Positions 8,356 to 38,369 of a DNA stretch of 38,369 bases are shown piece after piece; position 1 is the stretch's first letter; each line of letters begins with the position of its first letter. The DNA is taken from contig JBDRFA010000124.1 of the NCBI GenBank assembly GCA_043819235.1, positions 1 to 38,369 on the forward strand. Direction: 5' to 3'. Position numbers and translations under genes: made by a program. Below the pieces are notes generated by a model. That model was not told the DNA's origin. It saw nothing but the letters and a program-made list of their open reading frames with translations, and ran no database searches. The stretch comes from Candidatus Omnitrophota bacterium. Its GTDB lineage: Bacteria; Omnitrophota; Gorgyraeia; Tantalellales; Tantalellaceae.

Positions 8356-11069
8356 TCCAGCGCCGCCAGGTTATCTTCAAGCGTTTTGAGTTGTTCCGTG
8401 AATTTCTGTTTTTTTTCTTTCTCTTTGGCGACGACGTCTTCCGGCGCGTTGTCCACGAACGCCCTGTTAGCGAGTTTCTTTTCTATGCCGCCGAGATAAG
8501 CGCGTATATCAATGACCTTTTTTTCGATACGGGCCTTCTCTTTATCCACGTCTATCGTCCCGCCGAGCGGCACGAACACTTTTATCGTCCCCGCGAGAGA
8601 AGCGACGGACTGCGCGGGCCTCCGGACGTTCCCGCCCGACGCCGTGACCCTGCAGCGGGCCATCTGTTCGATATAATGGGCGTTCTCTTTAAGTAAAACC
8701 GCGTCCTCCGGAGCCGCCGTGTTAAGAAGGGCCTCTATTCTATCCGCCGGCGATATGTTCCAGAAAGCCTTGACGTTCCTGATAACCGCGATAACGCTGA
8801 TAAGTTTTTCCATGTCCGCCGCCGCTTTTTCATCATCGTACCTCTTCTCCGCGCACGGCCAGGAAGACAACATCAGCCATTTTACGTTCTTTTCACCGCT
8901 TCCGGCCGTCCCCGGATCATCCGGTATTTTCTGCCATATCTCTTCCGTTATGAACGGCATGAAGGGATGCAAAAGCCCGAGGATATCCTTAAGTACCTTC
9001 ACCAGTATCTTCCGCGTAGTTTCCCTGCTGGCGGAAAGTTTGGAACATTCCAGGTACCAGTCGCAGTATTTGTGCCATATAAAATCATACAACGCGGACG
9101 TCGCGTCGTTGAACCTGTACATGCCGAGGCTTTCCGTGACCTTCTCTTTCGCCCTGTTCAAACTGTCGAGTATCCAGCTGTCCGCCAGGCTGGCACGGGA
9201 CATGTCGATATCTCCCGATATGTCCGCCCCGTCGATATTCATCAGCACGTACCGGGAGGCGTTCCACAGCTTGTTCGCGAAATTCCGTCCCAGCTCGAAT
9301 TTCTCCCTGGACAGGAACACGTCCTGGCCCTGTGACGTGATGGATATCACGCTGAAACGTAAAGCGTCGCTGCCCACCTCGTCTATGACGTCGATAGGGT
9401 CTATGACATTGCCCAGGGATTTGGACATTTTTGTCCCCGTGACGTCACGGACCGTCCCGTGGATATACACGTCGCTGAACGGTATTTTCCCCATGAACTT
9501 GATCCCCGACATGATCATCCTGGCGACCCAGAAAAAGATGATCTCGGGCGCCGTGACCAGCACATCGGTCGGATAGAACTTTTTGAGTTCCGGCGTATTA
9601 TCCGGCCAACCCAGGGTGGAAAAGGGCCACAGCCAGGAACTGAACCACGTGTCGAGGACGTCGGGGTCCTGTTCGAGATCACCGCTCCCGCATGAGGCGC
9701 ATTTTTTGCCGGCCTCCGTGCCGGAGTAAATACCGGGGATACCCGGTTTATCGACGGCCACGTCCCGCACGTTATCATATTTCAGGCAATCTTTACAGTA
9801 CCAGACGGGTATACGGTGCCCCCACCATATCTGGCGCGAAACGCACCAGTCCCTTATGTTCTCCATCCAGTTAAGATATACTTTGGTCCACCGTTCCGGG
9901 TAGAATTTTATCCTGCCGCCGGTAACCGCTTCTATAGCTTCCTTCGCGAGAGGTTTCATCCGCACAAACCACTGTTTTGAAAGACGCGGCTCCACGACAG
10001 TATGGCAGCGGTAACAGTGCCCGACGGAATGCGCGTGCTTTTCCGTCCTGACGAAAAGCTTCCTTTCTTTCAGGTCCTCTATTATCGCTTCCCGGCACTC
10101 GAACCGGTCCATACCCTCATAATCCCCGCACAATTCGTTCATCGTACCGTCGGGGCGCATGACGTTTATCCTTTCAAGGCCGTGCCTCTGGCCGAGTTCG
10201 AAATCGACGGGATCATGCGCGGGGGTGACTTTGAGAGCCCCCGTGCCGAACGACGGGTCGACAGTATCGTCCTTTATCAGCGCCAGTTCCCTTTTGAGTA
10301 TGGGCAGGATGAACTTCTTTCCGCAAAGGCCGGAATACCGGGGGTCTTTCGGGTTGACCGCGACGGCCACATCCCCGAGCATCGTCTCCGGACGGGTAGT
10401 AGCCACGACGACATAGTCCTCGTTCTCCTTTTCCGGTTTTTCCCTGCCGGCCACCGGGTATTTTATGTAGTACAGCATGCCGTCCACATCACGGTGTTCG
10501 GCTTCCTCATCGCTGAGAGCGGTACCGCACCGCGGGCACCAGTTTATGATGTAGTCCCCTTTATAAAGCAGGCCCTCATCATATAACCGGACGAAAACCT
10601 CTCTAACGGCGTTCGAAAGCCCCTCATCCATCGTGAACCGCGTACGGTCCCAGTCACATGAACACCCCAGCCGCTTAAGCTGCCGGATTATCGTGCTCCC
10701 GCTCTCTTCCTTCCACTGCCATACCTTTTCAAGGAATTTCTCCCTGCCCAGGTCCGCCCTTTTAAGCCCCTCTTTGGCTATTTCCCTTTCCACGACGTTC
10801 TGCGTAGCTATGCCCGCGTGGTCGGTACCCGGCATCCATAACACGTTAAAGCCCTGCATGCGTTTCCACCGTATAAGTATGTCCTGGAGGGTATTATTGA
10901 GGGCGTGCCCCATATGGAGGATGCCCGTCACGTTGGGAGGAGGGATCACGATGCAATAAGGCTTTTTCCCGCTCTTTTCATCCGCGTGAAAAAGCCTTTC
11001 GCGGGACCACGCGCTATAGATCCCCGCTTCTATCGTTTTTGGGTCATATCTGGTAGGTATTCCTGTCAT
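8352..11069 (-). CDS. valS: valine--tRNA ligase
   Basis: HMGH (HIGH-type) and KMSKS motifs, a CP1 editing region and a C-terminal coiled coil. 905 aa. Confidence 0.97.
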   Translation of the reverse strand: MTGIPTRYDPKTIEAGIYSAWSRERLFHADEKSGKKPYCIVIPPPNVTGILHMGHALNNTLQDILIRWKRMQGFNVLWMPGTDHAGIATQNVVEREIAKEGLKRADLGREKFLEKVWQWKEESGSTIIRQLKRLGCSCDWDRTRFTMDEGLSNAVREVFVRLYDEGLLYKGDYIINWCPRCGTALSDEEAEHRDVDGMLYYIKYPVAGREKPEKENEDYVVVATTRPETMLGDVAVAVNPKDPRYSGLCGKKFILPILKRELALIKDDTVDPSFGTGALKVTPAHDPVDFELGQRHGLERINVMRPDGTMNELCGDYEGMDRFECREAIIEDLKERKLFVRTEKHAHSVGHCYRCHTVVEPRLSKQWFVRMKPLAKEAIEAVTGGRIKFYPERWTKVYLNWMENIRDWCVSRQIWWGHRIPVWYCKDCLKYDNVRDVAVDKPGIPGIYSGTEAGKKCASCGSGDLEQDPDVLDTWFSSWLWPFSTLGWPDNTPELKKFYPTDVLVTAPEIIFFWVARMIMSGIKFMGKIPFSDVYIHGTVRDVTGTKMSKSLGNVIDPIDVIDEVGSDALRFSVISITSQGQDVFLSREKFELGRNFANKLWNASRYVLMNIDGADISGDIDMSRASLADSWILDSLNRAKEKVTESLGMYRFNDATSALYDFIWHKYCDWYLECSKLSASRETTRKILVKVLKDILGLLHPFMPFITEEIWQKIPDDPGTAGSGEKNVKWLMLSSWPCAEKRYDDEKAAADMEKLISVIAVIRNVKAFWNISPADRIEALLNTAAPEDAVLLKENAHYIEQMARCRVTASGGNVRRPAQSVASLAGTIKVFVPLGGTIDVDKEKARIEKKVIDIRAYLGGIEKKLANRAFVDNAPEDVVAKEKEKKQKFTEQLKTLEDNLAALE

Positions 11070-17736: not shown

Positions 17737-18720
17737 TCACTCCTCTTCCTTCGATTCCCTCGTCATCAGCTCGGCTACCGCGGCTGCGGGGTTTTTCCCC
17801 TCGTAAATGACCTCGTATACCTTTTGCGTTATGGGCATCTCGACGCCGTGTTTTTTAGCCAGTTCATACGCCGACCGGCAGGTTGCGAGACCTTCCACCA
17901 CCATCTCGGTCTCTTTCAGGATCTCGGATACTTTCCGGCCCTTACCGATCTGTTCACCGAACCATCGGTTCCTGCTCTTAAGGCTTATACAGGTAGTGGC
18001 CAGGTCCCCCATGCCGCTCAAACCTCTAAAGGTACTCTCTTTGGCGCCGACCGCTACGCCCAGGCGCGTTATTTCCGCCAGCCCTCTGGTCAATATCGCC
18101 GCTTTGGAATTAGTGCCGAACCCGAGTCCATCGGAAATACCCGCGGCTATCGCGATGATATTTTTCAACGCGCCGCCCATCTCCACTCCCCTGATATCCC
18201 CTGAAGTGTAAACACGGAACCGGTCGGTAGACAATAGCTCCTGTATGTCTTTTCTCCATATTCCGTTCGAGGCGACCACGACCGTCGTCGGAATACCCGC
18301 GGCAACTTCAAATGAAATACTGGGGCCGGATATAACGCTTATCCTGGTATCGGGAAAAAACTCTTCCAGTATTTCAGAGGGCCTTTTCAAAGAACCGTTC
18401 TCAATCCCTTTAGTGGCGCTTATGATATGGCTGAAACCCGCTTCCCGGAACCTGTCCGCTACCGATCTCAGATACTCACAGGGGACCACGAAAAAAGCGT
18501 ATTCCGAACGTTTAACTATGTCATCATCGGACGTTATCTTAAGGCCCTCAGGCAACGGTATCCCTTTAAGAAACTTAACATTTTCCCTTTTTTTGTCCAG
18601 GAATTCGGCATATTGCGGAGAGACACTCCAAAGGACCGTATCAACGCCTTTCGCATGCAGTAAAAGGGCCAACGCCGTCCCCCACCCGCCATCTCCTATT
18701 ATACTGATTTTTTTACTCAT
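17737..18720 (-). CDS. gpsA: NAD(P)H-dependent glycerol-3-phosphate dehydrogenase
   Basis: KISIIGDGGWGTALA dinucleotide motif and GLKN/ALKNIIAIAAG motifs. I trimmed to the ATG at 18720. Confidence 0.92.
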   Translation of the reverse strand: MSKKISIIGDGGWGTALALLLHAKGVDTVLWSVSPQYAEFLDKKRENVKFLKGIPLPEGLKITSDDDIVKRSEYAFFVVPCEYLRSVADRFREAGFSHIISATKGIENGSLKRPSEILEEFFPDTRISVISGPSISFEVAAGIPTTVVVASNGIWRKDIQELLSTDRFRVYTSGDIRGVEMGGALKNIIAIAAGISDGLGFGTNSKAAILTRGLAEITRLGVAVGAKESTFRGLSGMGDLATTCISLKSRNRWFGEQIGKGRKVSEILKETEMVVEGLATCRSAYELAKKHGVEMPITQKVYEVIYEGKNPAAAVAELMTRESKEEE

Positions 18721-18796
18721 AATAACTTTCCAAAGTGTAACATATCTGATTTTTTGAGTCAATAATAATAAGAGTAAAGTAACGCGGGTTATAAAG

Positions 18797-18826
18797 AAAA
18801 GGGGACGGTAAATACCGTCCCCTTTT
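18797..18826 (-). terminator. intrinsic-terminator-like hairpin (potentially bidirectional)
   Basis: AAAAGGGGACGG (18797-18808), loop TAAATA, CCGTCCCCTTTT (18815-18826). On the minus strand the stem is followed by TTTTCTTTAT. It lies about 140 nt downstream of the 129-aa ORF. Confidence 0.6.
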
Positions 18827-18965
18827 CACTCTGGAGGCATGAAACCGCATGTTGGTACAGTTTCACGTTATTTCTTCAGGATCATCTCCACAAATAACAT
18901 CTGGCATTTCAACAAACACAGTTTAGCGATAGCTCTAAATATGGAATATATCCGCGACATCCTGT

Positions 18966-19355
18966 TTACTGTGACATCCATTTTACACCTCTGTTATTTT
19001 CTTTAACATTCTCGATCTGGATCCTGATGGAATTCACATAAACTACCCTATAGGCGGTTCTGCCGGAAATTACAAAGAATTCACCGAGGATCTTACAAGC
19101 TATCTTATTTTCTCCGGTTTTCCTATTCCCTTTTCTAAGAATGTGACTATTCTGCCTATATCCATTTTCCTTCCTTATCGTTATCCAATTCTTAAGGTCT
19201 TCGGGATTAGAAGAAGTATAGGCTTCCTTTATAAAATATTTACAAGACCGCCTTTTAGAGATTTTAATCTCGGGTTTATTACAGATCTCTTCGATGGAAA
19301 CTTCGTGTTTTCTTGGATTATCCCCCATCCTGTTTTTATAGAAAAGTTCTCTCAT
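18966..19355 (-). CDS. hypothetical protein (orphan ORF in AT-rich insert)
   Basis: 129-aa ATG-initiated ORF, Lys/Asn-rich, co-oriented with its neighbours. I recognise no motif, so coding status is uncertain. Confidence 0.4.
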   Translation of the reverse strand: MRELFYKNRMGDNPRKHEVSIEEICNKPEIKISKRRSCKYFIKEAYTSSNPEDLKNWITIRKENGYRQNSHILRKGNRKTGENKIACKILGEFFVISGRTAYRVVYVNSIRIQIENVKENNRGVKWMSQ

Positions 19356-19435
19356 AACCCTCTCCCTGTTAAAACTTTTAAAATGCGTTTAAAAAGTGAT
19401 TTCACAAAAACACTTTTTCTAATGCTAACACTTTG

Positions 19436-19463
19436 ATTATACACTATAAAGGAGGGAAAACAA
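19436..19463 (-). promoter_or_regulatory. candidate sigma70-type promoter for the 129-aa ORF
   Basis: The minus strand reads TTGTTT, a 16-nt spacer, then TATAAT (TATAAT is the complement of 19436-19441). It lies about 80 nt upstream of the ATG at 19355. Sequence pattern only. Confidence 0.3.
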
Positions 19464-19469
19464 GTAAAA

Positions 19470-20102
19470 TTATCTATCTTTTTTAAACCTTAACACTTTC
19501 TTTTCCGTACCTTGCAGTAATCTCTTTATGTTCGAACGATGAGAATAAATCCCGACAAGGCATATTACAGCGCACAGGAGGATAAAATCTAAACTCTTCC
19601 CCATGGCCAGCGCGAAGAACGGTAACGCGACGGCCGCCGCAATGGAGGCCAGCGACACATACCCCCATATCGTGAGAACAATGCCCCAGATGATGAGGCA
19701 GATCAGTAAAATACCCGGGGCTAACCCCGCCATCACTCCCGCCGCGGTCGCGACACCTTTTCCTCCCTTGAACCTGAGAAAAACGGTCCATATATGTCCG
19801 GCTATCGCCGCGACTCCCGGCAATATGTACGCGTACCCATAAGAACTGACGCCGTTGTCCGGGATGATCCTGCCAAGCACCGCCGGCAGAACGGTAACGG
19901 ACACGGCTCCTTTTAAAAGGTCCAGTACGAGCACAATGATCCCGGGCACCAGGCCTATAACCCTGAACACATTTGTGGCGCCTGCATTACCGCTTCCATG
20001 CTCGCGTATATCAATGCCTCTTAACACCTTTCCGAAAATATACGCTGTCGGGATCGACCCCATAAGATAAGCCAGGACTGTCAGGACAAATAAATATATC
20101 AT
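19470..20102 (-). CDS. plsY: glycerol-3-phosphate acyltransferase PlsY
   Basis: HGSGNAGATN motif, a polytopic membrane protein of 210 aa, and an ATGA overlap with der. Confidence 0.92.
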   Translation of the reverse strand: MIYLFVLTVLAYLMGSIPTAYIFGKVLRGIDIREHGSGNAGATNVFRVIGLVPGIIVLVLDLLKGAVSVTVLPAVLGRIIPDNGVSSYGYAYILPGVAAIAGHIWTVFLRFKGGKGVATAAGVMAGLAPGILLICLIIWGIVLTIWGYVSLASIAAAVALPFFALAMGKSLDFILLCAVICLVGIYSHRSNIKRLLQGTEKKVLRFKKDR

Positions 20103-29774: not shown

Positions 29775-30578
29775 TCACGCTTCGTGTACAGCCCGCGCAA
29801 GAGACGCCGCGAACTTTTTCACCCTCCGCACCATGGCGTTCTTATCCTTCAGGCCGTTCTCTATCAGTTTTATTATGGCGCTCCCGACGATCACCCCGTC
29901 AGCCGCCTCGGCCAGGCTCTTCGCCTGGACGGCATCCGACACTCCGAACCCCACGCATACGGGCCTCGCCGACACTTTTACCAGTTCCCGCAACTCGCCT
30001 TTCAATTTCCCTGAAAAGGACTTCCTCGCCCCCGTAACCCCGGTAAGGGAAATATAATATATGAACCCTCTCGAACATTTTGAGATCTTTTTGAACCTCT
30101 CGACCGGCGTGGTGGGCGCGGCAAGCATGACCAGGTAAAAATCTTCCTTATCCGCCGCCAGGCTCAATTCCCCCGATTCTTCCATCGGCAGGTCCGGCAC
30201 TATAACACCGTCGGCCCCGGCCGCCTTCGCGTCCCGGACAAACCTGCTTACACCGTAGTTGAAAATAATGTTGTAATAGGTCATAAAAACGAAGGGTACC
30301 TGGACGGTTTTCCTTAATTCTTTCACCATAAACAGGACTTTCCTTACGGTGCAGCCGCCCTCAAGCGACCGCTGTATCGCTTTCTGTATGGTCGGGCCGT
30401 CCGCCAGAGGGTCTGAAAAAGGCACTCCCAGTTCGATAATATCCGCGCCGGCGTTGACCAGCGCGCGCGTTATCCTTTTGGTAGTCTCCATATCCGGGTC
30501 CCCGGACGTTATATAAGGTATGAACGCCTTCTTCCCCTCCGCTTTCAACTGTCTGAACTTTTCATCTATACGGTTCAT
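29775..30578 (-). CDS. trpA: tryptophan synthase alpha chain
   Basis: FIPYITSGDP, ELGVPFSDPLADGPTIQ and YISLTGVTG motifs. Confidence 0.93.
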   Translation of the reverse strand: MNRIDEKFRQLKAEGKKAFIPYITSGDPDMETTKRITRALVNAGADIIELGVPFSDPLADGPTIQKAIQRSLEGGCTVRKVLFMVKELRKTVQVPFVFMTYYNIIFNYGVSRFVRDAKAAGADGVIVPDLPMEESGELSLAADKEDFYLVMLAAPTTPVERFKKISKCSRGFIYYISLTGVTGARKSFSGKLKGELRELVKVSARPVCVGFGVSDAVQAKSLAEAADGVIVGSAIIKLIENGLKDKNAMVRRVKKFAASLARAVHEA

Positions 30579-30629
30579 ATCCTCTCCTGTAATAAATTGG
30601 CTCGCACCTTGAAGTCTGGTTCTTCCTCA

Positions 30630-30726
30630 CTTCTCGCGTGAGGTGTTCCCTATGCTCCGTACCGGGAGGATCCACACCGGGCGGAGGGGCCCGGGTAGGA
30701 GCATAGGGAACTCCTCACGCGAGAAG
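30630..30726. repeat. conserved-core/variable-arm hairpin element, copy d
   Basis: 29-nt arms cttctcgcgtgaggtgttccctatgctcc (30630-30658) and ggagcatagggaactcctcacgcgagaag (30698-30726), with one mismatch, around the same core. It lies in the trpB-trpA spacer. Confidence 0.9.
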
Positions 30727-30742
30727 ACTTTTTCGTCACAGT

Positions 30743-31942
30743 CTAATCCATCGCCAGGTTTTCCCTGATAATATCTATATCCTTATCCCCGCGTCCGGAC
30801 AAACACATCACTATTATATCGTTCTTCTTCGTCTTACCCGCCAATCTGGTCAGGTAATAGACCGCATGGGCGGATTCAAGAGCGGGTATGATCCCTTCGA
30901 CCTCCGACAGGAGTTTAACCCCCTCAAGAGCCTCCGAGTCCTTCACCGATACGTACTCGGCCCTGCCGATCTGCTGATAATACGCGTGTTCCGGGCCCAC
31001 ACCCGGATAATCCAGCCCGGCCGATATGGAATGGGCGAGTTTTACCTGACCGTCGCTGTCTTCCAGGAGCATGCTCTTACTGCCATGAAGCACTCCCAGC
31101 TTCCCTTTTTTCAGCGCGGCCCCGTGATGGCCCGTATTCAGCCCCAGGCCGGCCGCCTCGACACCGATGAACGATACTTTTTTATCGCCGAAAAACGGAT
31201 AAAAAAGGCCCATTGAATTACTTCCCCCTCCCACGCACGCGACCAGATGCGTGGGGAACCTGCCTTCTTTTTTCATGATCTGCCTGCGTACTTCCCGTCC
31301 GATCACGGACTGGAAATCCCTGACCATGACCGGGTACGGGTGGGGCCCGGCAACGGAACCGATAATATAATAAGTGTCGCGCACATTGGTGACCCAGTCC
31401 CTTATAGCCTCGTTCATCGCGTCCTTGAGGGTACACGAGCCGCTGTCCACGGGTATTACCCTGGTCCCAAGGAGTTTCATACGGAAAACGTTCAGATTCT
31501 GCCTTTTGATGTCTTCGGTCCCCATGTAAACGTCGCATTTGAGGCCCAGGAGAGCCGCGACGGTAGCGGTAGCCACCCCATGCTGTCCCGCGCCGGTCTC
31601 CGCGATCAGACGTTTCTTACCCATATGGACGGCCAGGAGCCCCTGCCCGATCGTATTGTTTATCTTATGCGCCCCGGTATGCAGAAGGTCCTCTCTTTTC
31701 AGGTAGATCTTCCCGCCTCCGAGTTTTTTCGTAAGGTTTTCCGCGAAATATAACGGGGTCGGCCTTCCCGCGTATTCCTTCAGATAATAAACGAACCGTT
31801 CCCGGAAAAACCGTGTTTTTCTGAATTTGCCGTACGCCTCAGCCAGTTCTTCGACCGCCGGCATAAGGGTTTCGGGGATGAACCTTCCCCCGAATATCCC
31901 GAAATAACCTTTACTGTCAGGCACTTTGCGCGTTTTTCGCAT
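30743..31942 (-). CDS. trpB: tryptophan synthase beta chain
   Basis: [18 protein letters not shown], the PLP-lysine region [11 protein letters not shown], and GGGSNSMG. Confidence 0.95.
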
Positions 31943-32621
31943 TCTTGATAAACTCCTTTAAAAGGTCTTCATCTTTTTTGCCGGGGATCTTCTCGACCCC
32001 GCTCGATACATCAACACCATAGGGCCCCACGGCAATGACCGCGTCCGCCACGTTTTGAGGGGTAAGCCCTCCCGCTATAAAAAAAGGTTTTGTCAAACCC
32101 CCTTTTGCCTTCACAAGGACGTCCCAATCGAACCTGGTCCCCGTCCCCCCCTGCAACCGGGGATGGAACGTATCGAAAACAAAATAGTCCGCGTCATCAT
32201 AATCCCCGGCGGTATACGACCCGCAGGGCAGAATGTCCTCTTTTACCTTAAAAGCCTTGATGATCATAACCTCCGACCCGTACTTTTCCCTCAGGATCTT
32301 CTTGATCGTCCGGCAATCATGCGGGGTCTCTTCACCCTGTAACTGCACGTAATTGAACCCGCAATCCGAAACTATCCTCGCGATGCGTTCCGGAATATCG
32401 TTGTGGAAAAGCCCTACCCTCCCGACCCTCGTTCTCAGTTCTTCCGGAATACCCGCCATTATGATCTTAACGTCCGAGGGGTCATTTACACAGCGCTGCG
32501 TCCCCCGTATAAAAATGAACCCCAGAAGGTCCGCGCCGTAAGTTCCGGCCTTCAACGCGTCCTCCGCGCTGGTCAACCCGCATATCTTCACTTTAAGATC
32601 GCTCGCGGCTTTTTTCTCCAT
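31917..32621 (-). CDS. trpF: phosphoribosylanthranilate isomerase
   Basis: VKICGLT N-terminal motif and position between trpC and trpB. The 3' end overlaps the trpB start by 26 nt. Confidence 0.88.
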
Positions 32622-32624
32622 ATC

Positions 32625-33401
32625 CTATTCCCTCATGAGTTCCCTGACCTTCTCGCCTATCTTATCCGCCTTCATGAACGTTTCCCCGATCAATACGGCG
32701 TTCACGCCAAGGCTCTTCAGGAACATCACCTGTTCGTAACTTTCTATACCGCTTTCGGAAACGATCGTCTTGGTATCGGGTATCAGGTGGATCAGCCTCT
32801 GCGTAACGGAGAGGTCCACACTGAACGTCGTAAGGTCCCTGTTATTTATACCGATGATGGCGGCGGGGCTCTCAAGCGCTTTCCCGACCTCTTCCTCGTT
32901 ACGGACCTCGACCAGCACGTCCATGCCGAGCTCTTTTGCTATTCCGAAATACCGGTTCAATTCCCCCTGGGTGAGTATATGCGCGATCAGAAGTATGGCT
33001 TCGGCGCCCGAGGCCGCGGATTCATAGACCTGGTACTCGTCTATGATAAAATCCTTCCTGAGGACCGGTATCGTCACCCTTTCCTTTACAATTCCCAGAT
33101 ATTCGAGCCGGCCCTCAAAAAAACGTTCATCCGTCACCACGCTGATCGCGCTGGCGCCCGCGCCTTGATAAGCCACCGCGATCTGCGCGGGGTCAAAATT
33201 GACCCGCAAAACCCCTTTGGACGGCGACCGTTTTTTTATTTCAGCTATAAGGTTGATGTGCCCTTTTCTTGCTATGTTCTTTTTGAACATGCTTTTTATA
33301 TAAAGCGACTCCGCTTTTTTCTTTATATCGCTAAAGGAGATCCTTTTCATCGCCTTATCGACTTCCCTGCGCTTCTCCTCGATGATCCTCGATAATATCA
33401 T
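32625..33401 (-). CDS. trpC: indole-3-glycerol phosphate synthase
   Basis: IAEIKKRSPSKG, LRKDFIIDEYQ and GINNRDL motifs. The track start at 33404 is TTG. I prefer the adjacent ATG at 33401, which has AAGGAG upstream. Confidence 0.9.
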   Translation of the reverse strand: MILSRIIEEKRREVDKAMKRISFSDIKKKAESLYIKSMFKKNIARKGHINLIAEIKKRSPSKGVLRVNFDPAQIAVAYQGAGASAISVVTDERFFEGRLEYLGIVKERVTIPVLRKDFIIDEYQVYESAASGAEAILLIAHILTQGELNRYFGIAKELGMDVLVEVRNEEEVGKALESPAAIIGINNRDLTTFSVDLSVTQRLIHLIPDTKTIVSESGIESYEQVMFLKSLGVNAVLIGETFMKADKIGEKVRELMRE

Positions 33402-33422
33402 CAATTTTTTCTCCTTAGTCTC

Positions 33423-33448
33423 AGGGCAGGCACAAGGCCTGCCCCTAC
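33423..33448. repeat. related GTAG-type hairpin in the trpD-trpC spacer
   Basis: The minus strand reads GTAGGGGCAGGCCTTGTGCCTGCCCT, with an 8-bp stem GGGCAGGC/GCCTGCCC. On the plus strand it is followed by a T-run (cattttttatttt). Confidence 0.6.
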
Positions 33449-33494
33449 ATTTTTTATTTTCCTCCCCCCATCAAACATCACAAACATATCGCCT

Positions 33495-34523
33495 CTACTC
33501 ACACCCGCTGCCGTTGGTCATAGCGATCAGTTCTTCCAGTTTTTTCATGGCCGCGCCCGAGTCAATAGCTTCCGCGGCTAGCAGTACCGCCTCTTTCAGG
33601 TCTTCCGCCTTTTCCGACGCCATAAGCCCGAGTCCCGCGTTAATAAGTACTATATCTCTTTTGGGCCCCTTTTTCCCCGATAGAACGTCTTTCACTATCT
33701 GCGCGTTCTCCTTCACCGTACCGCCTTTTATATCCTCGATAGACGCTCTCTTTATTCCGGACTGCTCCGGTTCGATCATAAAGGAACGGACCGAACCGTT
33801 CTTCAGTTCGCTGACAGCGGTACTTCCGGTAATGGTAACTTCATCGAGCCCGTCATCGCCGCTTACCACATACGCGCGTTTTGTCCCCAGGTTCCTGAGG
33901 ACGTTCGCCAGGACCTCCGTAAGAGCGCGGTCATATACCCCCAGGACCTGCCGGTCGGCCGAAGCGGGATTAGATAAAGGCCCCAGTATGTTAAATATCG
34001 TCCGTATCCCTATTTCCTTCCGCGGAGCGGCGGCGTGTTTCATGGCGCCGTGATAGACCGGGGCGAAAAGAAAACCTATATTTATCTTATCTATGCACCC
34101 GGCCACGGACTCAGGCGGGATATCCAGCCTCACTCCCAGACTTTCCAGCACATCCGCGCTTCCGCATTTGCTGGACGCCGCCCGGTTACCGTGTTTGGCC
34201 ACTTTAACGCCGCAGGCCGCGATGACGAAGGCCGACGCCGTGGAAACGTTGAAAACCCCGGTCCCCGAACCGCCCGTACCGCAGGTATCCAGTACCGCGC
34301 CGGCGCCGGCCGGGTTTATCTTCAAAGCTTTCTCCCTCATGGCCAGGGCCGCGCCCGTTATTTCATCGACGGTCTCGCCTTTCATCCTGAGGGCCGTGAT
34401 GAACGCGCCTATCTGGGCCGCCGCCGCATGGCCGCTCATTATCTCATCGAACACCGAACGGGTCTCTTCGGCCGTCAGGTTCTCGAACAGAACAACTTTC
34501 CCTATCGCTCTCTTTATATCCAT
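33495..34523 (-). CDS. trpD: anthranilate phosphoribosyltransferase
   Basis: [10 protein letters not shown] and [18 protein letters not shown] motifs. Confidence 0.93.
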
Positions 34524-34537
34524 CCCTTACCCCTCAG

Positions 34538-35104
34538 CTATTTTATCTCGATAAAATTCTTCAGCAGTTTTTTTCCCTCCGTCGTCAATATCGATTCCGG
34601 ATGGAACTGCACCCCCCAGACGGCCTTATCTTTATGCCGCACCCCCATTATCTCCCCGTCCCCGGTCCGGGCCGTAACCTCCAGAGGGTCCTTAAGGCTG
34701 TCAGGGGCCACGACCAGCGAATGGTACCTTGTGGCGGTAAAAGGGGACGGTATCCCTCTGAAAATACCTTCTCCCTCATGATAGATAGAACTTACTTTCC
34801 CGTGCATGATAGTGTCGCCGCGCACGACCCTGGCCCCATAGACCTCGGCGATGCACTGGTGCCCCAGGCACACACCGAGTATCGGCACCTCTCCGGCAAA
34901 CCTCCGGATAACCTCTTCCGATATACCGGCGTCCTGAGGACGGCCCGGACCCGGCGAGATAACTATCCTTTCGGGTGAACGGGATACAAGTTCCTCCATG
35001 CCGACCTTATTGTTGCGATAGACGACGATGTCCTGGCCTAGCTCGCCCAGATACTGCACGAGGTTATATGTAAATGAATCGTAGTTATCTATGACGATTA
35101 TCAT
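34538..35104 (-). CDS. trpG: anthranilate synthase component II (glutamine amidotransferase)
   Basis: IIVIDNYDSFTYNLVQYL, catalytic GVCLGHQ and the FHPES triad. I trimmed to the ATG at 35104, which forms an ATGA overlap with the trpE stop. Confidence 0.9.
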   Translation of the reverse strand: MIIVIDNYDSFTYNLVQYLGELGQDIVVYRNNKVGMEELVSRSPERIVISPGPGRPQDAGISEEVIRRFAGEVPILGVCLGHQCIAEVYGARVVRGDTIMHGKVSSIYHEGEGIFRGIPSPFTATRYHSLVVAPDSLKDPLEVTARTGDGEIMGVRHKDKAVWGVQFHPESILTTEGKKLLKNFIEIK

Positions 35105-36576
35105 TCCAATCCTTCCTCGGAAAATTCTATGGCCTTTATCATCGCCATCGCCTTGTTCCGGGTCTCCTGGTATTCCTTCTCCGGTTCGGAATCCAGCACT
35201 ATCCCGGCCCCGGCCTGGATGCAGGCGGTATCCCCTCTCATGACTATCGTCCTTATGGTTATACACATATCGATGTTCCCCGAAAAACTTATATAACCTA
35301 CACAACCGGCATAGGGCCCGCGCCGCGTATTCTCAAGCTCGTCTATGATCTCCATGGCCCTGATTTTCGGGGCTCCCGACACCGTGCCGGCGGGAAAAAC
35401 CGCTTTCATAAGGTCGTAAATATCCTTATCCTTCCGCAACTTACCCGTGACATCCGTTACTATGTGCATCACGTGTGAATACTTCTCGATCGTCATTATC
35501 TCCCCGGGATGCACGCTGGAGTACTCGCATACCCTGCCTATATCGTTCCTCCCCAGGTCGACGAGCATGATATGCTCCGCTTTTTCCTTCGGATCGGCCA
35601 GGAGCTCTTTTTCAAGTCTCATATCCTCTTCTTCGGTCTCTCCGCGCCGGCGCGTACCGGCGATCGGCCTCACTTCGACGATATTGTCCTCACATCTGAC
35701 GAGTATCTCGGGCGACGACCCTATTATCCGGTTGTCACCGAACTTGAGATAGAACATGTACGGCGACGGGTTTATCGACCGGAGCGCCCTGTATATGGAG
35801 AACGGGTCCGAATGCGTGCGCCTTTTGAACCTCTGGGAAAGGACGACCTGTATTATGTCCCCCGCCCGTATATATTCCTTCGCGGCCTCGACGATGGAAC
35901 TGAAACCCTCTTCAGAAAAATTCGATCCCAGACCCGACAAAGCCTTGATCGGCCCGGCGCGTACCGGTTCGACCAGCTTCTTTTTAAGTTTTTCCATGAC
36001 CCTGTCGATCTCGCGGCAAGCCCTGTCATATGCTTCGGCGGGATCGCCTTCGATGACGGCGTTAGAAACGACCTTTATTTTGTGGTCCACATGGTCAAAA
36101 ATAAGGATAGTATCAGTGAGCGCCATCTGCATATCGGGAATATCAAAATCCTCGGGGTTCTTATCCGGCAGGTCCTCGATGAACCGGACCATATCGTACC
36201 CGATGTACCCTACAAGGCCCCCCGAGAACCTGGGAAGCCCTTTCACCGCGACGAACTTGAAACCCTCCATAAGGGACTTTATCTCCGCTATGGGGTCCTT
36301 TTCGGTCGCGTATTCTTCCGTCTTTTTTCCGCGCGTTATCCTGATATTCTTCCCTTTGCTCTCTATGACCAGGGCCGGGCCGCTTCCCAGAAAAGAATAC
36401 CTGGCCATATGCTCGCCGCCCTCTACGGATTCCAGAAGATAGGAAAAATCCCCCTCATCTATTTTAAGAAAAGCTGACAGCGGCGTATCAAAATCAGCCA
36501 GCATCTCCCGGTAGACAGGAATAACGTTTCCTTTTTTCGACAATTCGATAAATGTCTGTTTGTCGGGATTATACAT
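35101..36576 (-). CDS. trpE: anthranilate synthase component I
   Basis: LESVEGGE, GAPKIRAMEIIDELE and GPYAGCVGY motifs. I trimmed to the ATG at 36576 (MYNPDKQTF...), with AAGGAG 12 nt upstream. The longer track ORF overlaps the neighbouring AT-rich gene. Confidence 0.93.
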   Translation of the reverse strand: MYNPDKQTFIELSKKGNVIPVYREMLADFDTPLSAFLKIDEGDFSYLLESVEGGEHMARYSFLGSGPALVIESKGKNIRITRGKKTEEYATEKDPIAEIKSLMEGFKFVAVKGLPRFSGGLVGYIGYDMVRFIEDLPDKNPEDFDIPDMQMALTDTILIFDHVDHKIKVVSNAVIEGDPAEAYDRACREIDRVMEKLKKKLVEPVRAGPIKALSGLGSNFSEEGFSSIVEAAKEYIRAGDIIQVVLSQRFKRRTHSDPFSIYRALRSINPSPYMFYLKFGDNRIIGSSPEILVRCEDNIVEVRPIAGTRRRGETEEEDMRLEKELLADPKEKAEHIMLVDLGRNDIGRVCEYSSVHPGEIMTIEKYSHVMHIVTDVTGKLRKDKDIYDLMKAVFPAGTVSGAPKIRAMEIIDELENTRRGPYAGCVGYISFSGNIDMCITIRTIVMRGDTACIQAGAGIVLDSEPEKEYQETRNKAMAMIKAIEFSEEGLE

Positions 36577-36640
36577 TTCTAAACTAAACTCCTTTGTCGC
36601 CCCGCGGGCGCACAGACAATCCCAGTTCAAAGTTTCCGTT

Positions 36641-37093
36641 TCATAATAAGGTACTTGTTTTAACCAACAAGCCATAATCTCTAGCATTAATTTTAATCGC
36701 TGATTTACCTCGGAGAGCAAGGCCTATACCGTTTGAGGGATTATTAGTGCAGCTTTTCATGCTTTCCCTAATAAAATCTAACCTCAATTTAACCCCATCA
36801 AAAGCAACTCTCCCGCTCCATTCTTTGACACAACTCAGTTTAACTTCACAAACACCCGTTTTGTCATCGACTGATTTTCTTGTTGTAGTATATGAAAATT
36901 CACCTACAATAGCTTGACCAACAAAATACTTTTCCTTTTTAGTGTCGCTGAGATAAAAAATTATTTCGTCGCCTTTACGTGGAGTGACGCGGAGCTTCTT
37001 TGTGAATTGCCACGTCTTTTTTTTTATCATTTCCCTGAAACCTCTTTCACATTTCAAATTAACATGAGGAAAAATCCAATAATTTGCCACCAT
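36641..37093 (-). CDS. small PUA-like (EVE/ASCH-like) domain protein, tentative
   Basis: 150 aa from the ATG at 37093 (the track start at 37105 is TTG, and that TTG-GAG-GA stretch supplies the GGAGGA RBS). The pattern NYWIF...TWQF...KGDEIIFYLS...YFVGQAIVGEF...VKLSCV...LRGKSAIKINARDY resembles the EVE/PUA beta-barrel profile. This is motif-level resemblance only. Confidence 0.45.
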   Translation of the reverse strand: MVANYWIFPHVNLKCERGFREMIKKKTWQFTKKLRVTPRKGDEIIFYLSDTKKEKYFVGQAIVGEFSYTTTRKSVDDKTGVCEVKLSCVKEWSGRVAFDGVKLRLDFIRESMKSCTNNPSNGIGLALRGKSAIKINARDYGLLVKTSTLL

Positions 37094-37171
37094 CTTATCC
37101 TCCAATAATACCTTTGGCCCTCACCATAAATACGTGCAGGAATAGCTTTTTAATGTCGATCCATTAGCTTT

Positions 37172-38323
37172 CTACACAGAAATAGATTTAATCACCTTAT
37201 TTAACTTCTTCCTATCCCACAATTCCACATTGTTAACATTCGCTAACTCAATAGCGCTTTTAGTAAATGTACTGGTAATAACAACAACTGCTTTTTTCGC
37301 TTTATAATATTCTTTAGCGGCGACTATCTCCTGAACCGCTTTATTCCCGACACTCCCATTATATTTTTTAGCCTGAACGACTGTCTTGTTACCTTCTTGA
37401 TCCAGCAACACCAAATCCGCCCCTTGATCCTGGCTGAGTTTTGTTTGTATTGCCTTATACCCCAACGCTTTGAAAACTTCCTTCAAGTATTCTTCAAACT
37501 CATACCCATTTAAATTGTCAAAATTCCCAAAACTTATTTCCTTCTTTTTCCCCAAGTTTTGCTCAAACTCTTCTGCTTCTTTTCGGTCAGCGGATTCTTC
37601 CAACCAAGACTGGATAACGCTATCTTCAACTTCTGTGTTATACTGATTCAGAATAACGACTACAAAGTGAACTTTCTCTTTCTCATCAAAGTACTCATCA
37701 AACACAACTCCTAAATTAAAAGACATATTAGCTCGGAACTTCCTCATTTCGCGATCCTGAAACCTTTGCTCACTTAGTCCCAATATTTGTTTTACAACCT
37801 CAATCTTTTCTTCTGCCAAGCTATTTTCAGAAATATAGCCTAGCTGGGAAATTTTCTTTATTGTTTCGTCTACAAAAAATTTAAAAAGTTCCTCTCTTTC
37901 TTGTTTACCTTCATCATCTTCTTTCTGCTCTAAAAATCTAACAGCATTTATAAGATCTCTATCTGTTACTTTAAGATTCTTATGTTTGAATAGCTTTCTC
38001 ATTTTTTTCACATCATCAAGAAAATCCAAAACCCTTTCACCCCAGTTAATCTGCAACATTCTACCTTTCTCTCCACCATTAAAATCAAATTCCCCACGAT
38101 GCAGTCTTTCTAAAAAGTTCACAAAAAATGGTCTTGAGCCTTCCAATCGATCCGCAAATTTCGTAGTACTGGTATCGTCGCCAAGAGGAAGTCCCGGATC
38201 AACAAAATAATACAATATTATGCTTCGCAGATCATCAGGTGAATGCACATCAGCACTTAAATATTTCTCTACAATCTCCAAAAGTTCATCGTCCGGCTTC
38301 GAATAACATTTCTTACTGTCCAT
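37172..38323 (-). CDS. Mrr-type restriction endonuclease domain protein with uncharacterised N-terminal region
   Basis: C-terminal GYEFEEYLKEVFKALGY...DQGADLVLLD...TVVQAKKY...VQEIVAAKEYY...AVVVITSTFTKSA fits the Mrr_cat PD-(D/E)xK pattern (D...QxK). About 270 N-terminal residues are acidic and helical-looking, with no motif I recognise. Confidence 0.7.
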   Translation of the reverse strand: MDSKKCYSKPDDELLEIVEKYLSADVHSPDDLRSIILYYFVDPGLPLGDDTSTTKFADRLEGSRPFFVNFLERLHRGEFDFNGGEKGRMLQINWGERVLDFLDDVKKMRKLFKHKNLKVTDRDLINAVRFLEQKEDDEGKQEREELFKFFVDETIKKISQLGYISENSLAEEKIEVVKQILGLSEQRFQDREMRKFRANMSFNLGVVFDEYFDEKEKVHFVVVILNQYNTEVEDSVIQSWLEESADRKEAEEFEQNLGKKKEISFGNFDNLNGYEFEEYLKEVFKALGYKAIQTKLSQDQGADLVLLDQEGNKTVVQAKKYNGSVGNKAVQEIVAAKEYYKAKKAVVVITSTFTKSAIELANVNNVELWDRKKLNKVIKSISV

Positions 38324-38369
38324 AGTACGTGAAATTGGGAAACTTGTTTTTATATCATCCCACCATGCC

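Follow-up and report, generated by a model that had tools for sequence, protein, structure and literature searches.

Immediately upstream of the trp operon on a contig of a Candidatus Omnitrophota metagenome-assembled genome lies an islet of foreign, low-G+C DNA that carries two adjacent genes, one for an Mrr-family nuclease and one for a small protein predicted to adopt the EVE/PUA fold. We analyzed this islet in the context of the entire 38,369-bp contig (the window), and we examined the gene neighbourhoods of relatives of both proteins. The two families do not co-occur at the loci that we surveyed. The interpretation that we prefer, and to which we assign roughly even confidence, is that the locus is a small defence-type islet holding two independently mobile genes rather than a conserved pair.

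According to this interpretation, a stretch of low-G+C DNA, 1.8 kb long or more, would have been acquired horizontally and inserted immediately upstream of the trp operon. The Mrr protein would be a nuclease that acts on its own as a single polypeptide, of the type IV or “sensor plus Mrr_cat” kind: its N-terminal part would recognise the target or exert regulation, and DNA would be cut at the D...QxK site. The EVE protein would bind a flipped-out modified base in nucleic acid, and its position next to the nuclease gene would reflect the clustering of defence genes in variable islets. The principal features are as follows.

36577–38369, no strand assigned: low-G+C islet (0.37), presumably horizontally acquired, with a single visible boundary (G+C and G+C at third codon positions, GC3).
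37172–38369, minus strand: Mrr-family nuclease gene; 383 residues from the first ATG (38323), with the frame open to the contig end (open reading frame list; NCBI “restriction endonuclease, partial,” 398 residues).
37193–37519, minus strand: Mrr_cat PD-(D/E)xK catalytic domain with the upstream EFEE helix, residues 269–377 of the 383-residue form (Pfam PF04471).
37520–38323, minus strand: N-terminal and middle region of the nuclease (about 268 residues), without Pfam assignment; helical middle domain with the motifs EKYLS and LDFLDDVKKMRKLF (alignment A1, with homologues of 416–511 residues).
36641–37093, minus strand: standalone 150-residue EVE/PUA-fold protein (UPF0310-like), putative modified-base reader (profile and structure).

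EVE and Mrr genes do not co-occur among their relatives

The first-pass annotation of this DNA had proposed that the two genes encode a two-component, modification-dependent system, and had itself tied that proposal to the co-occurrence of their homologues. On the EVE side we collected 37 loci by a metagenome scan with the tighter EVE subfamily and by exact look-ups. Most of these are distant relatives (24–35% identity), and at least 500 bp of flanking sequence was present upstream in 26 loci and downstream in 26. When the flanks were searched with a local hidden Markov model (HMM) built from 120 Mrr_cat domains, no open reading frame (ORF) with an Mrr_cat domain was found at E ≤ 10 near any of the 37 EVE-family genes. 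The Mrr side comprised 83 loci, three found by look-up and 80 by scanning species-representative genomes, and it includes DPANN archaea, Methanosarcinales, bacteria of the candidate phyla radiation (CPR), Omnitrophota, Acidobacteriota, and Firmicutes. Two EVE HMMs detected no EVE ORF at E ≤ 10 near any of these 83 genes. No other gene emerged as a conserved partner of the Mrr family, as the largest shared neighbour family occurs at no more than 7 of the 83 loci and represents lineage-specific synteny. The homologues thus do not co-occur, and the proposed two-component system is not borne out.

The closest EVE homologue (L004, 53% amino acid identity) leads to the same result. The ORF upstream of it is unrelated to the Mrr protein and has no Pfam match, and the similarity between the window and L004 at the DNA level does not extend beyond the EVE coding sequence and the Shine-Dalgarno sequence ahead of it. 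Across the clade of closest EVE proteins, the neighbouring genes showed no homology to one another or to the Mrr protein, and no shared partner was found.

EVE contexts differ from locus to locus: an HNH gene with RmuC in one case, a leu/asd/truA cluster in another, and otherwise small genes of unknown function. In the first case (L113:4403-6435, and also L114–L116), a gene for a 160-residue HNH endonuclease is found 1.1 kb upstream of that for the EVE homologue P0125; three small genes of unknown function lie between the two, and RmuC lies further upstream on the four contigs. This could be another reader-plus-nuclease neighbourhood. In the second case (L118:1-6447), the EVE homologue P0127 (35% identity) lies directly downstream of leuCD, leuB, asd, and truA; the resemblance to the trp setting, in that both adjoin amino acid biosynthesis genes, is probably a coincidence. 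Among distant standalone EVE relatives, four loci contain putative C5-cytosine methyltransferase ORFs with motif I in the form FSGxGG or FAGAGG (L016:2372-3346, L028:1571-2545, L020:2226-3335, and L032:4472-5704), one to three genes from the EVE gene, and these motifs hint at a context related to 5-methylcytosine (5mC) for that distant branch.

Links between EVE proteins and nucleases are frequent in the wider family, in the form of fusions. At about 17 of the 37 EVE loci, the encoded protein has about 300 residues, and its EVE domain is followed by a C-terminal PD-(D/E)xK domain of the NucS_C/YhcG_C type (examples are L009:6001-6879 and L008:504-1394, with about 14 more loci), and the nuclease halves match the PADLOC PDC-S02 models (E 1e-46). 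One protein (L031:302-2119) has EVE fused to NOV_C/DUF3883, as in the PADLOC PDC-S36 and PD-T4-1 types. In P0128, a member of the clade nearest to the window protein, EVE is preceded by a domain that weakly resembles NucS_C, with a score below threshold (E 0.0017). Fusions of EVE to PD-(D/E)xK and HNH nucleases are predicted type IV restriction enzymes, fast-evolving EVE domains occur in defence contexts, and standalone EVE proteins adjoin type I restriction-modification (R-M) and SWI2/SNF2-nuclease systems (Bell, Wolf and Koonin, 2020, PMC7641849). The nuclease links of the wider family make a defence role for the EVE gene of the window plausible; they do not tie it to this Mrr gene.

The Mrr-family nuclease and the EVE protein

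The first-pass annotation had described two co-oriented ORFs at the contig edge, encoding an Mrr-type nuclease and a PUA/EVE-like protein. Both ORFs are present on the minus strand (37172–38323, 383 residues, and 36641–37093, 150 residues), with every peptide motif that it had quoted, and our searches agree with both family assignments.

The C-terminal part of the larger protein matches Pfam PF04471 over almost the whole model (positions 2–114 of 115; E 6.8e-30, 104 bits against a cutoff of 21). The nuclease motif is intact and reads GAD(303)-x13-Q(317)AK(319) in the numbering of the 383-residue form. In an alignment of 12 family members (A1), which uses a 399-codon numbering offset by +15, the corresponding residues D318, Q332, and K334 are invariant. 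Because the GAD-x13-QAK pattern is invariant across the family, the protein is expected, from its sequence, to have an active PD-(D/E)xK site. The D ... (E/Q)xK residues are those that we take to be catalytic in E. coli Mrr.

The rest of the protein had been described as an unknown N-domain of about 270 residues; it is not specific to this locus. We found 301 homologues of the Mrr protein at E ≤ 1e-3, the nearest of them only 42% identical, and many of these cover at least about 75% of the query at about 40% identity, so that the helical part is common property of many family members. In alignment A1, the homologues usually begin with a CxxC...CxxC Zn ribbon, which is followed by a helical middle domain (motifs KYLS(N)K and LDFLDDLEKMYKLF, and also LDFLDDLEK), Mrr_cat, and sometimes C-terminal Zn ribbons. 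No Zn ribbon is recognisable in the window copy, even when the 15 codons upstream of the first ATG are included; the ribbon has either been lost or is located past the contig end. The true N-terminus of the protein is uncertain, because the frame extends without interruption to the final base of the contig, NCBI annotates the protein as partial, and no Shine-Dalgarno sequence precedes the ATG at 38323. Residues 1–268 gave no meaningful profile match in the PDB and no Pfam match except a non-significant one to bpX0, and the winged-helix Mrr_N domain of the E. coli Mrr-type architecture was not found in the window protein by Pfam. The family as a whole ranges over DPANN archaea, Methanosarcinales, CPR bacteria, Omnitrophota, Ignavibacteria, and others (L001–L003 and L033–L112).

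Several more specific assignments were considered for the nuclease and set aside. PADLOC reported matches to the ZorD C-terminus, PDC-S02, and mREase_IV, all restricted to the nuclease domain. The ZorD match covers only model positions 930–1062 of 1071, which correspond to the nuclease domain, and Pfam detects no helicase domain, so the protein is not ZorD. An overlapping match to NA-iREase1, an inactive nuclease, is weaker than that to Mrr_cat, and the catalytic residues are intact. The bpX0 match was rejected as non-significant.

The small protein was harder to place by direct comparison. Taken alone, it scores below the Pfam threshold for EVE (PF01878; 18.6 bits against a cutoff of 23, E 0.0019), and a word-indexed homologue search with the single sequence returned only the query itself. 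An exhaustive HMMER search recovered 12 relatives and a profile search recovered 35. Nine of 11 family members match the Pfam EVE model (best E 4.4e-8), and the family profile matches the PDB entries for MJECL36 (2p5d, E 5.9e-12) and PH1033 (1wmm, E 2e-9) over the full length. With a 36-sequence alignment, AlphaFold2 produced a model with a mean predicted local distance difference test score (pLDDT) of 94 and a predicted template-modelling score (pTM) of 0.88; from the single sequence the pLDDT was 31. A Foldseek search of the PDB with this model ranked 2p5d first (E 1.2e-7, template-modelling [TM] score 0.71/0.74), and 1wmm and 2hd9 gave TM scores of 0.67–0.70. Next in rank, with a probability of 1.00, were THYN1 with 5mC DNA, YTH domains, the EVE-HNH enzyme VcaM4I, and McrB N-domains. 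Profile and model agree in assigning the protein to the EVE/PUA fold.

The clade to which this protein belongs is rare and patchy, with about 35–45 proteins among 5.8 billion. Across the EVE family, W6, W28, Y47, W92, D42, and R72 are conserved. In the profile alignment, the cage residue W25 of MJECL36 corresponds to W28, which is clearly conserved, and F79 and F90 have no clear counterpart. MJECL36 itself has an aromatic cage, yet its binding of N6-methyladenosine (m6A) was undetectable (PMC6112328).

A foreign islet next to the trp operon

The G+C content is 0.528 over positions 1–36576 and 0.370 over 36577–38369. Equally long windows taken from the remainder of the contig have a mean of 0.528, a standard deviation of 0.026, and a minimum of 0.427, which places the islet about 6 standard deviations lower. 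The two islet genes have G+C contents of 0.364 and 0.365, and GC3 is 0.32 in the EVE gene and 0.34 in the Mrr gene, against 0.59–0.66 in trpE, trpG, and trpD. The islet DNA is compositionally foreign, and it was presumably gained by horizontal transfer. The first-pass annotation had placed a sharp shift in composition at about position 36620. The drop was real, and its hand counts (22 of 60 at 37201–37260 and 32 of 60 at 10021–10080) were exact; the change itself is gradual, being spread over approximately 36450–36650 with its onset within the 5′ end of trpE.

We found no flanking repeats, tRNA, or Rfam element at the islet boundary. A prophage or plasmid fragment as the origin of the islet is unsupported: searches of phage and plasmid collections and of IMG/VR returned no EVE relatives, and the Mrr_cat relatives found there were similar at the level of the domain only. 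Searches for exact copies of three proteins of the contig (those of the Mrr gene, the EVE gene, and trpE) yielded no second contig that carries them. The visible 1.8 kb holds no further defence genes, and its flanks are the trp operon on one side and the contig end on the other; no methyltransferase, DUF499, or helicase gene was seen in the 1.8 kb before the contig ends.

The spacing of the genes bears on how they might be expressed, and the features concerned are the following.

35101–36576, minus strand: trpE (anthranilate synthase component I), first gene of trpEGDCFBA and the flank of native composition (Pfam Chorismate_bind, 5e-96, and Anth_synt_I_N, 4e-38).
36577–36640, minus strand: 64-nt spacer from the EVE stop codon to the trpE ATG (36576); contains the trpE Shine-Dalgarno sequence AAAGGAG and no terminator-like site (sequence, terminator scan).
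37094–37171, minus strand: 78-nt spacer from the Mrr stop codon to the EVE ATG; no minus-strand terminator-like site (sequence, promoter/terminator scan).
37099–37103, minus strand: GGAGG Shine-Dalgarno sequence, 5 nt before the EVE ATG and also kept before the ATG of the closest homologue (sequence).

The complete trpEGDCFBA operon occupies 29775–36576, and Pfam confirms the trp genes; the small gene does end 64 nt ahead of the trpE start, as had been noted. A gap of 66 nt had been given for the two islet genes, and this figure matches an in-frame TTG at 37105; the distance to the ATG of the 150-residue protein is 78 nt. The ATG at 37093 is the likelier start because GGAGG sits 5 nt upstream of it and overlaps the TTG, and L004 has the same arrangement ahead of its ATG (...TGGAGGTATAAGATG). 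With the ATG as the start, the real gap between the Mrr and EVE genes is therefore 78 nt. Promoter and terminator scans gave signals not above shuffled expectation. As the 78-nt spacer contains no terminator-like site, co-transcription of the two genes is possible, and, given that there is no terminator ahead of trpE, read-through from the islet into the trp operon is possible as well.

Across the 38-kb contig, all ORFs that look like real genes are on the minus strand, and the GC skew is negative throughout. Between gpsA (17737–18762) and plsY (19470–20102) there is a gap of about 700 nt (18763–19469) with a G+C content of about 0.44–0.47, against 0.53; its sole ORF is an orphan of 129 residues on the minus strand (18966–19355). 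This gap may be a second small insertion.

Alternative explanations and relation to known systems

Several observations weigh against our preferred interpretation of two independent genes. Adjacent and co-oriented, the EVE and Mrr genes are separated by 78 nt that contain no terminator-like site, and their equal G+C content and similar GC3 fit joint acquisition and expression. The window copy of the Mrr protein does not show the N-terminal Zn ribbon of its homologues, and such a ribbon-less copy could depend on a separate targeting subunit. The sample also has limits: many of the EVE contigs are short, and the nearest relatives of both proteins share only 30–55% identity with them, so that a lineage-specific pairing would be missed. 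To our knowledge, neither the Mrr family nor the EVE clade has been connected with defence by experiment.

The strongest competitor, which we consider doubtful but worth taking seriously, builds on the same observations. In a split type IV system, the EVE protein would read a modified base and recruit or activate the Mrr nuclease in trans, both being expressed from one operon, and EVE would stand in for the Zn-ribbon targeting module that was not found in this Mrr copy. Beyond the arrangement and the near-identical composition of the two genes, which suggest joint acquisition, this explanation gains from the fact that EVE relatives are often fused to PD-(D/E)xK nucleases, so that cooperation is the norm in the clade, and from the standalone EVE proteins already described as partners of restriction systems (PMC7641849). 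The comparative results speak against it. None of the 37 EVE loci or 83 Mrr loci has the other gene, the closest EVE homologue has no Mrr gene nearby, the fused nucleases are of the NucS/YhcG or NOV_C types and not Mrr_cat, and the Zn ribbon may simply lie past the contig end, since the Mrr ORF is open. A version restricted to this locus, in which a rare UPF0310-like EVE protein acts in trans to a Mrr protein lacking the Zn ribbon and reader and nuclease modules have been exchanged between DPANN/CPR-type donors and Omnitrophota, seems to us similarly doubtful.

It is less likely still that these two genes belong to a larger system that extends past 38369 and of which only one end is visible. 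It would include, for example, a methyltransferase, an ATPase or helicase, or type I R-M genes, and EVE, Mrr, or both would be accessory to it. The contig does stop within the Mrr ORF or a short way ahead of it, standalone EVE proteins have been described alongside type I R-M systems and SWI2/SNF2-nuclease systems (PMC7641849), the four distant relatives described above lie near ORFs with C5-methyltransferase motifs, and the Mrr_cat domain resembles the ZorD C-terminus. However, nothing is visible past the contig end, the relatives in the Mrr family have no conserved neighbours, and the ZorD match is confined to the nuclease domain.

Least probable of all is the absence of any defence module, with the EVE protein reading modified RNA (e.g., tRNA or rRNA) in a cellular role of the kind that has been suggested for conserved EVE and UPF0310 proteins, and the Mrr-like gene being an unrelated nuclease gene, selfish or decaying and possibly truncated: the closest structures are those of archaeal UPF0310 proteins, of which MJECL36 did not bind m6A (PMC6112328), some EVE homologues lie among housekeeping genes (as in L118, after leuCD-leuB-asd-truA), and read-through into the trp operon is conceivable, but the rarity and patchiness of the EVE clade, the foreign composition, the intact catalytic residues of the Mrr protein, and the varying contexts and frequent nuclease fusions, which are traits of fast-evolving defence EVE domains and not of housekeeping ones (PMC7641849), all point the other way.

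Our preferred interpretation, two independently mobile genes, makes the locus a routine case of defence-type genes in a small foreign islet beside a housekeeping operon. If the pair did cooperate, a split, trans-acting version would join the EVE-guided type IV restriction enzymes, and there would be a handle on the ligand that UPF0310-type EVE proteins read; as a variation on a theme already described, such an arrangement would be a minor one, and the comparative data do not support it. The analysis has two by-products of modest use. A rare standalone EVE clade of about 40 known members, whose relatives include EVE-NucS-type fusions, gains a confident predicted fold, and a Zn-ribbon/helical/Mrr_cat family is delineated that crosses domains of life, has no conserved partner gene, and carries an unstudied N-terminal module.

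Among known systems, the nearest parallels are the EVE-PD-(D/E)xK and EVE-HNH enzymes, which are type IV modification-dependent restriction endonucleases, either predicted or characterised (PMC7641849; the VcaM4I/TspA15I group, PMC6765204, 6yex). These, too, bring together a PUA-fold reader and a PD-(D/E)xK nuclease; the EVE model from the window structurally matches the reader domain of VcaM4I, and relatives of the window EVE protein are themselves such fusions, of the NucS_C/YhcG_C type. In contrast to these enzymes, the reader and the nuclease of the window are encoded by separate genes, the nuclease is an Mrr_cat protein with its own long N-terminal region, and the pairing, which is known here from sequence alone, recurs at none of the 37 and 83 loci.

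Standalone EVE proteins associated with a type I R-M system or with the COG1743-DUF499-SWI2/SNF2-nuclease system also place EVE beside a restriction-type nuclease gene (PMC7641849). Relative to the COG1743-DUF499 system, the only resemblance to a helicase-nuclease in the window is the match of Mrr_cat to the C-terminus of ZorD. In size and fold, the EVE protein resembles the archaeal proteins MJECL36 (2p5d) and PH1033 (1wmm, 2hd9), with TM scores of 0.67–0.74, whereas it is only 21–24% identical to them, bacterial, rare, and located in a low-G+C islet.

Like E. coli Mrr and other single-chain Mrr_cat type IV enzymes (and also MspJI-type remote homologues, PMC2938202), the nuclease has Mrr_cat at its C-terminus, complete with the D...QxK motif. 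It differs from E. coli Mrr in that the N-terminus of its family consists of a Zn ribbon and a helical region instead of the winged-helix Mrr_N, and its modification dependence is putative. Like these enzymes and the single-gene candidates mREase_IV and PDC-S02 of PADLOC, it is encoded by one gene, has no conserved partner, and belongs to a group with a variable N-terminal region that is presumed to act as a sensor. Both genes are thus divergent new members of established groups, the Mrr_cat nucleases on the one hand and the restriction-associated EVE readers on the other.

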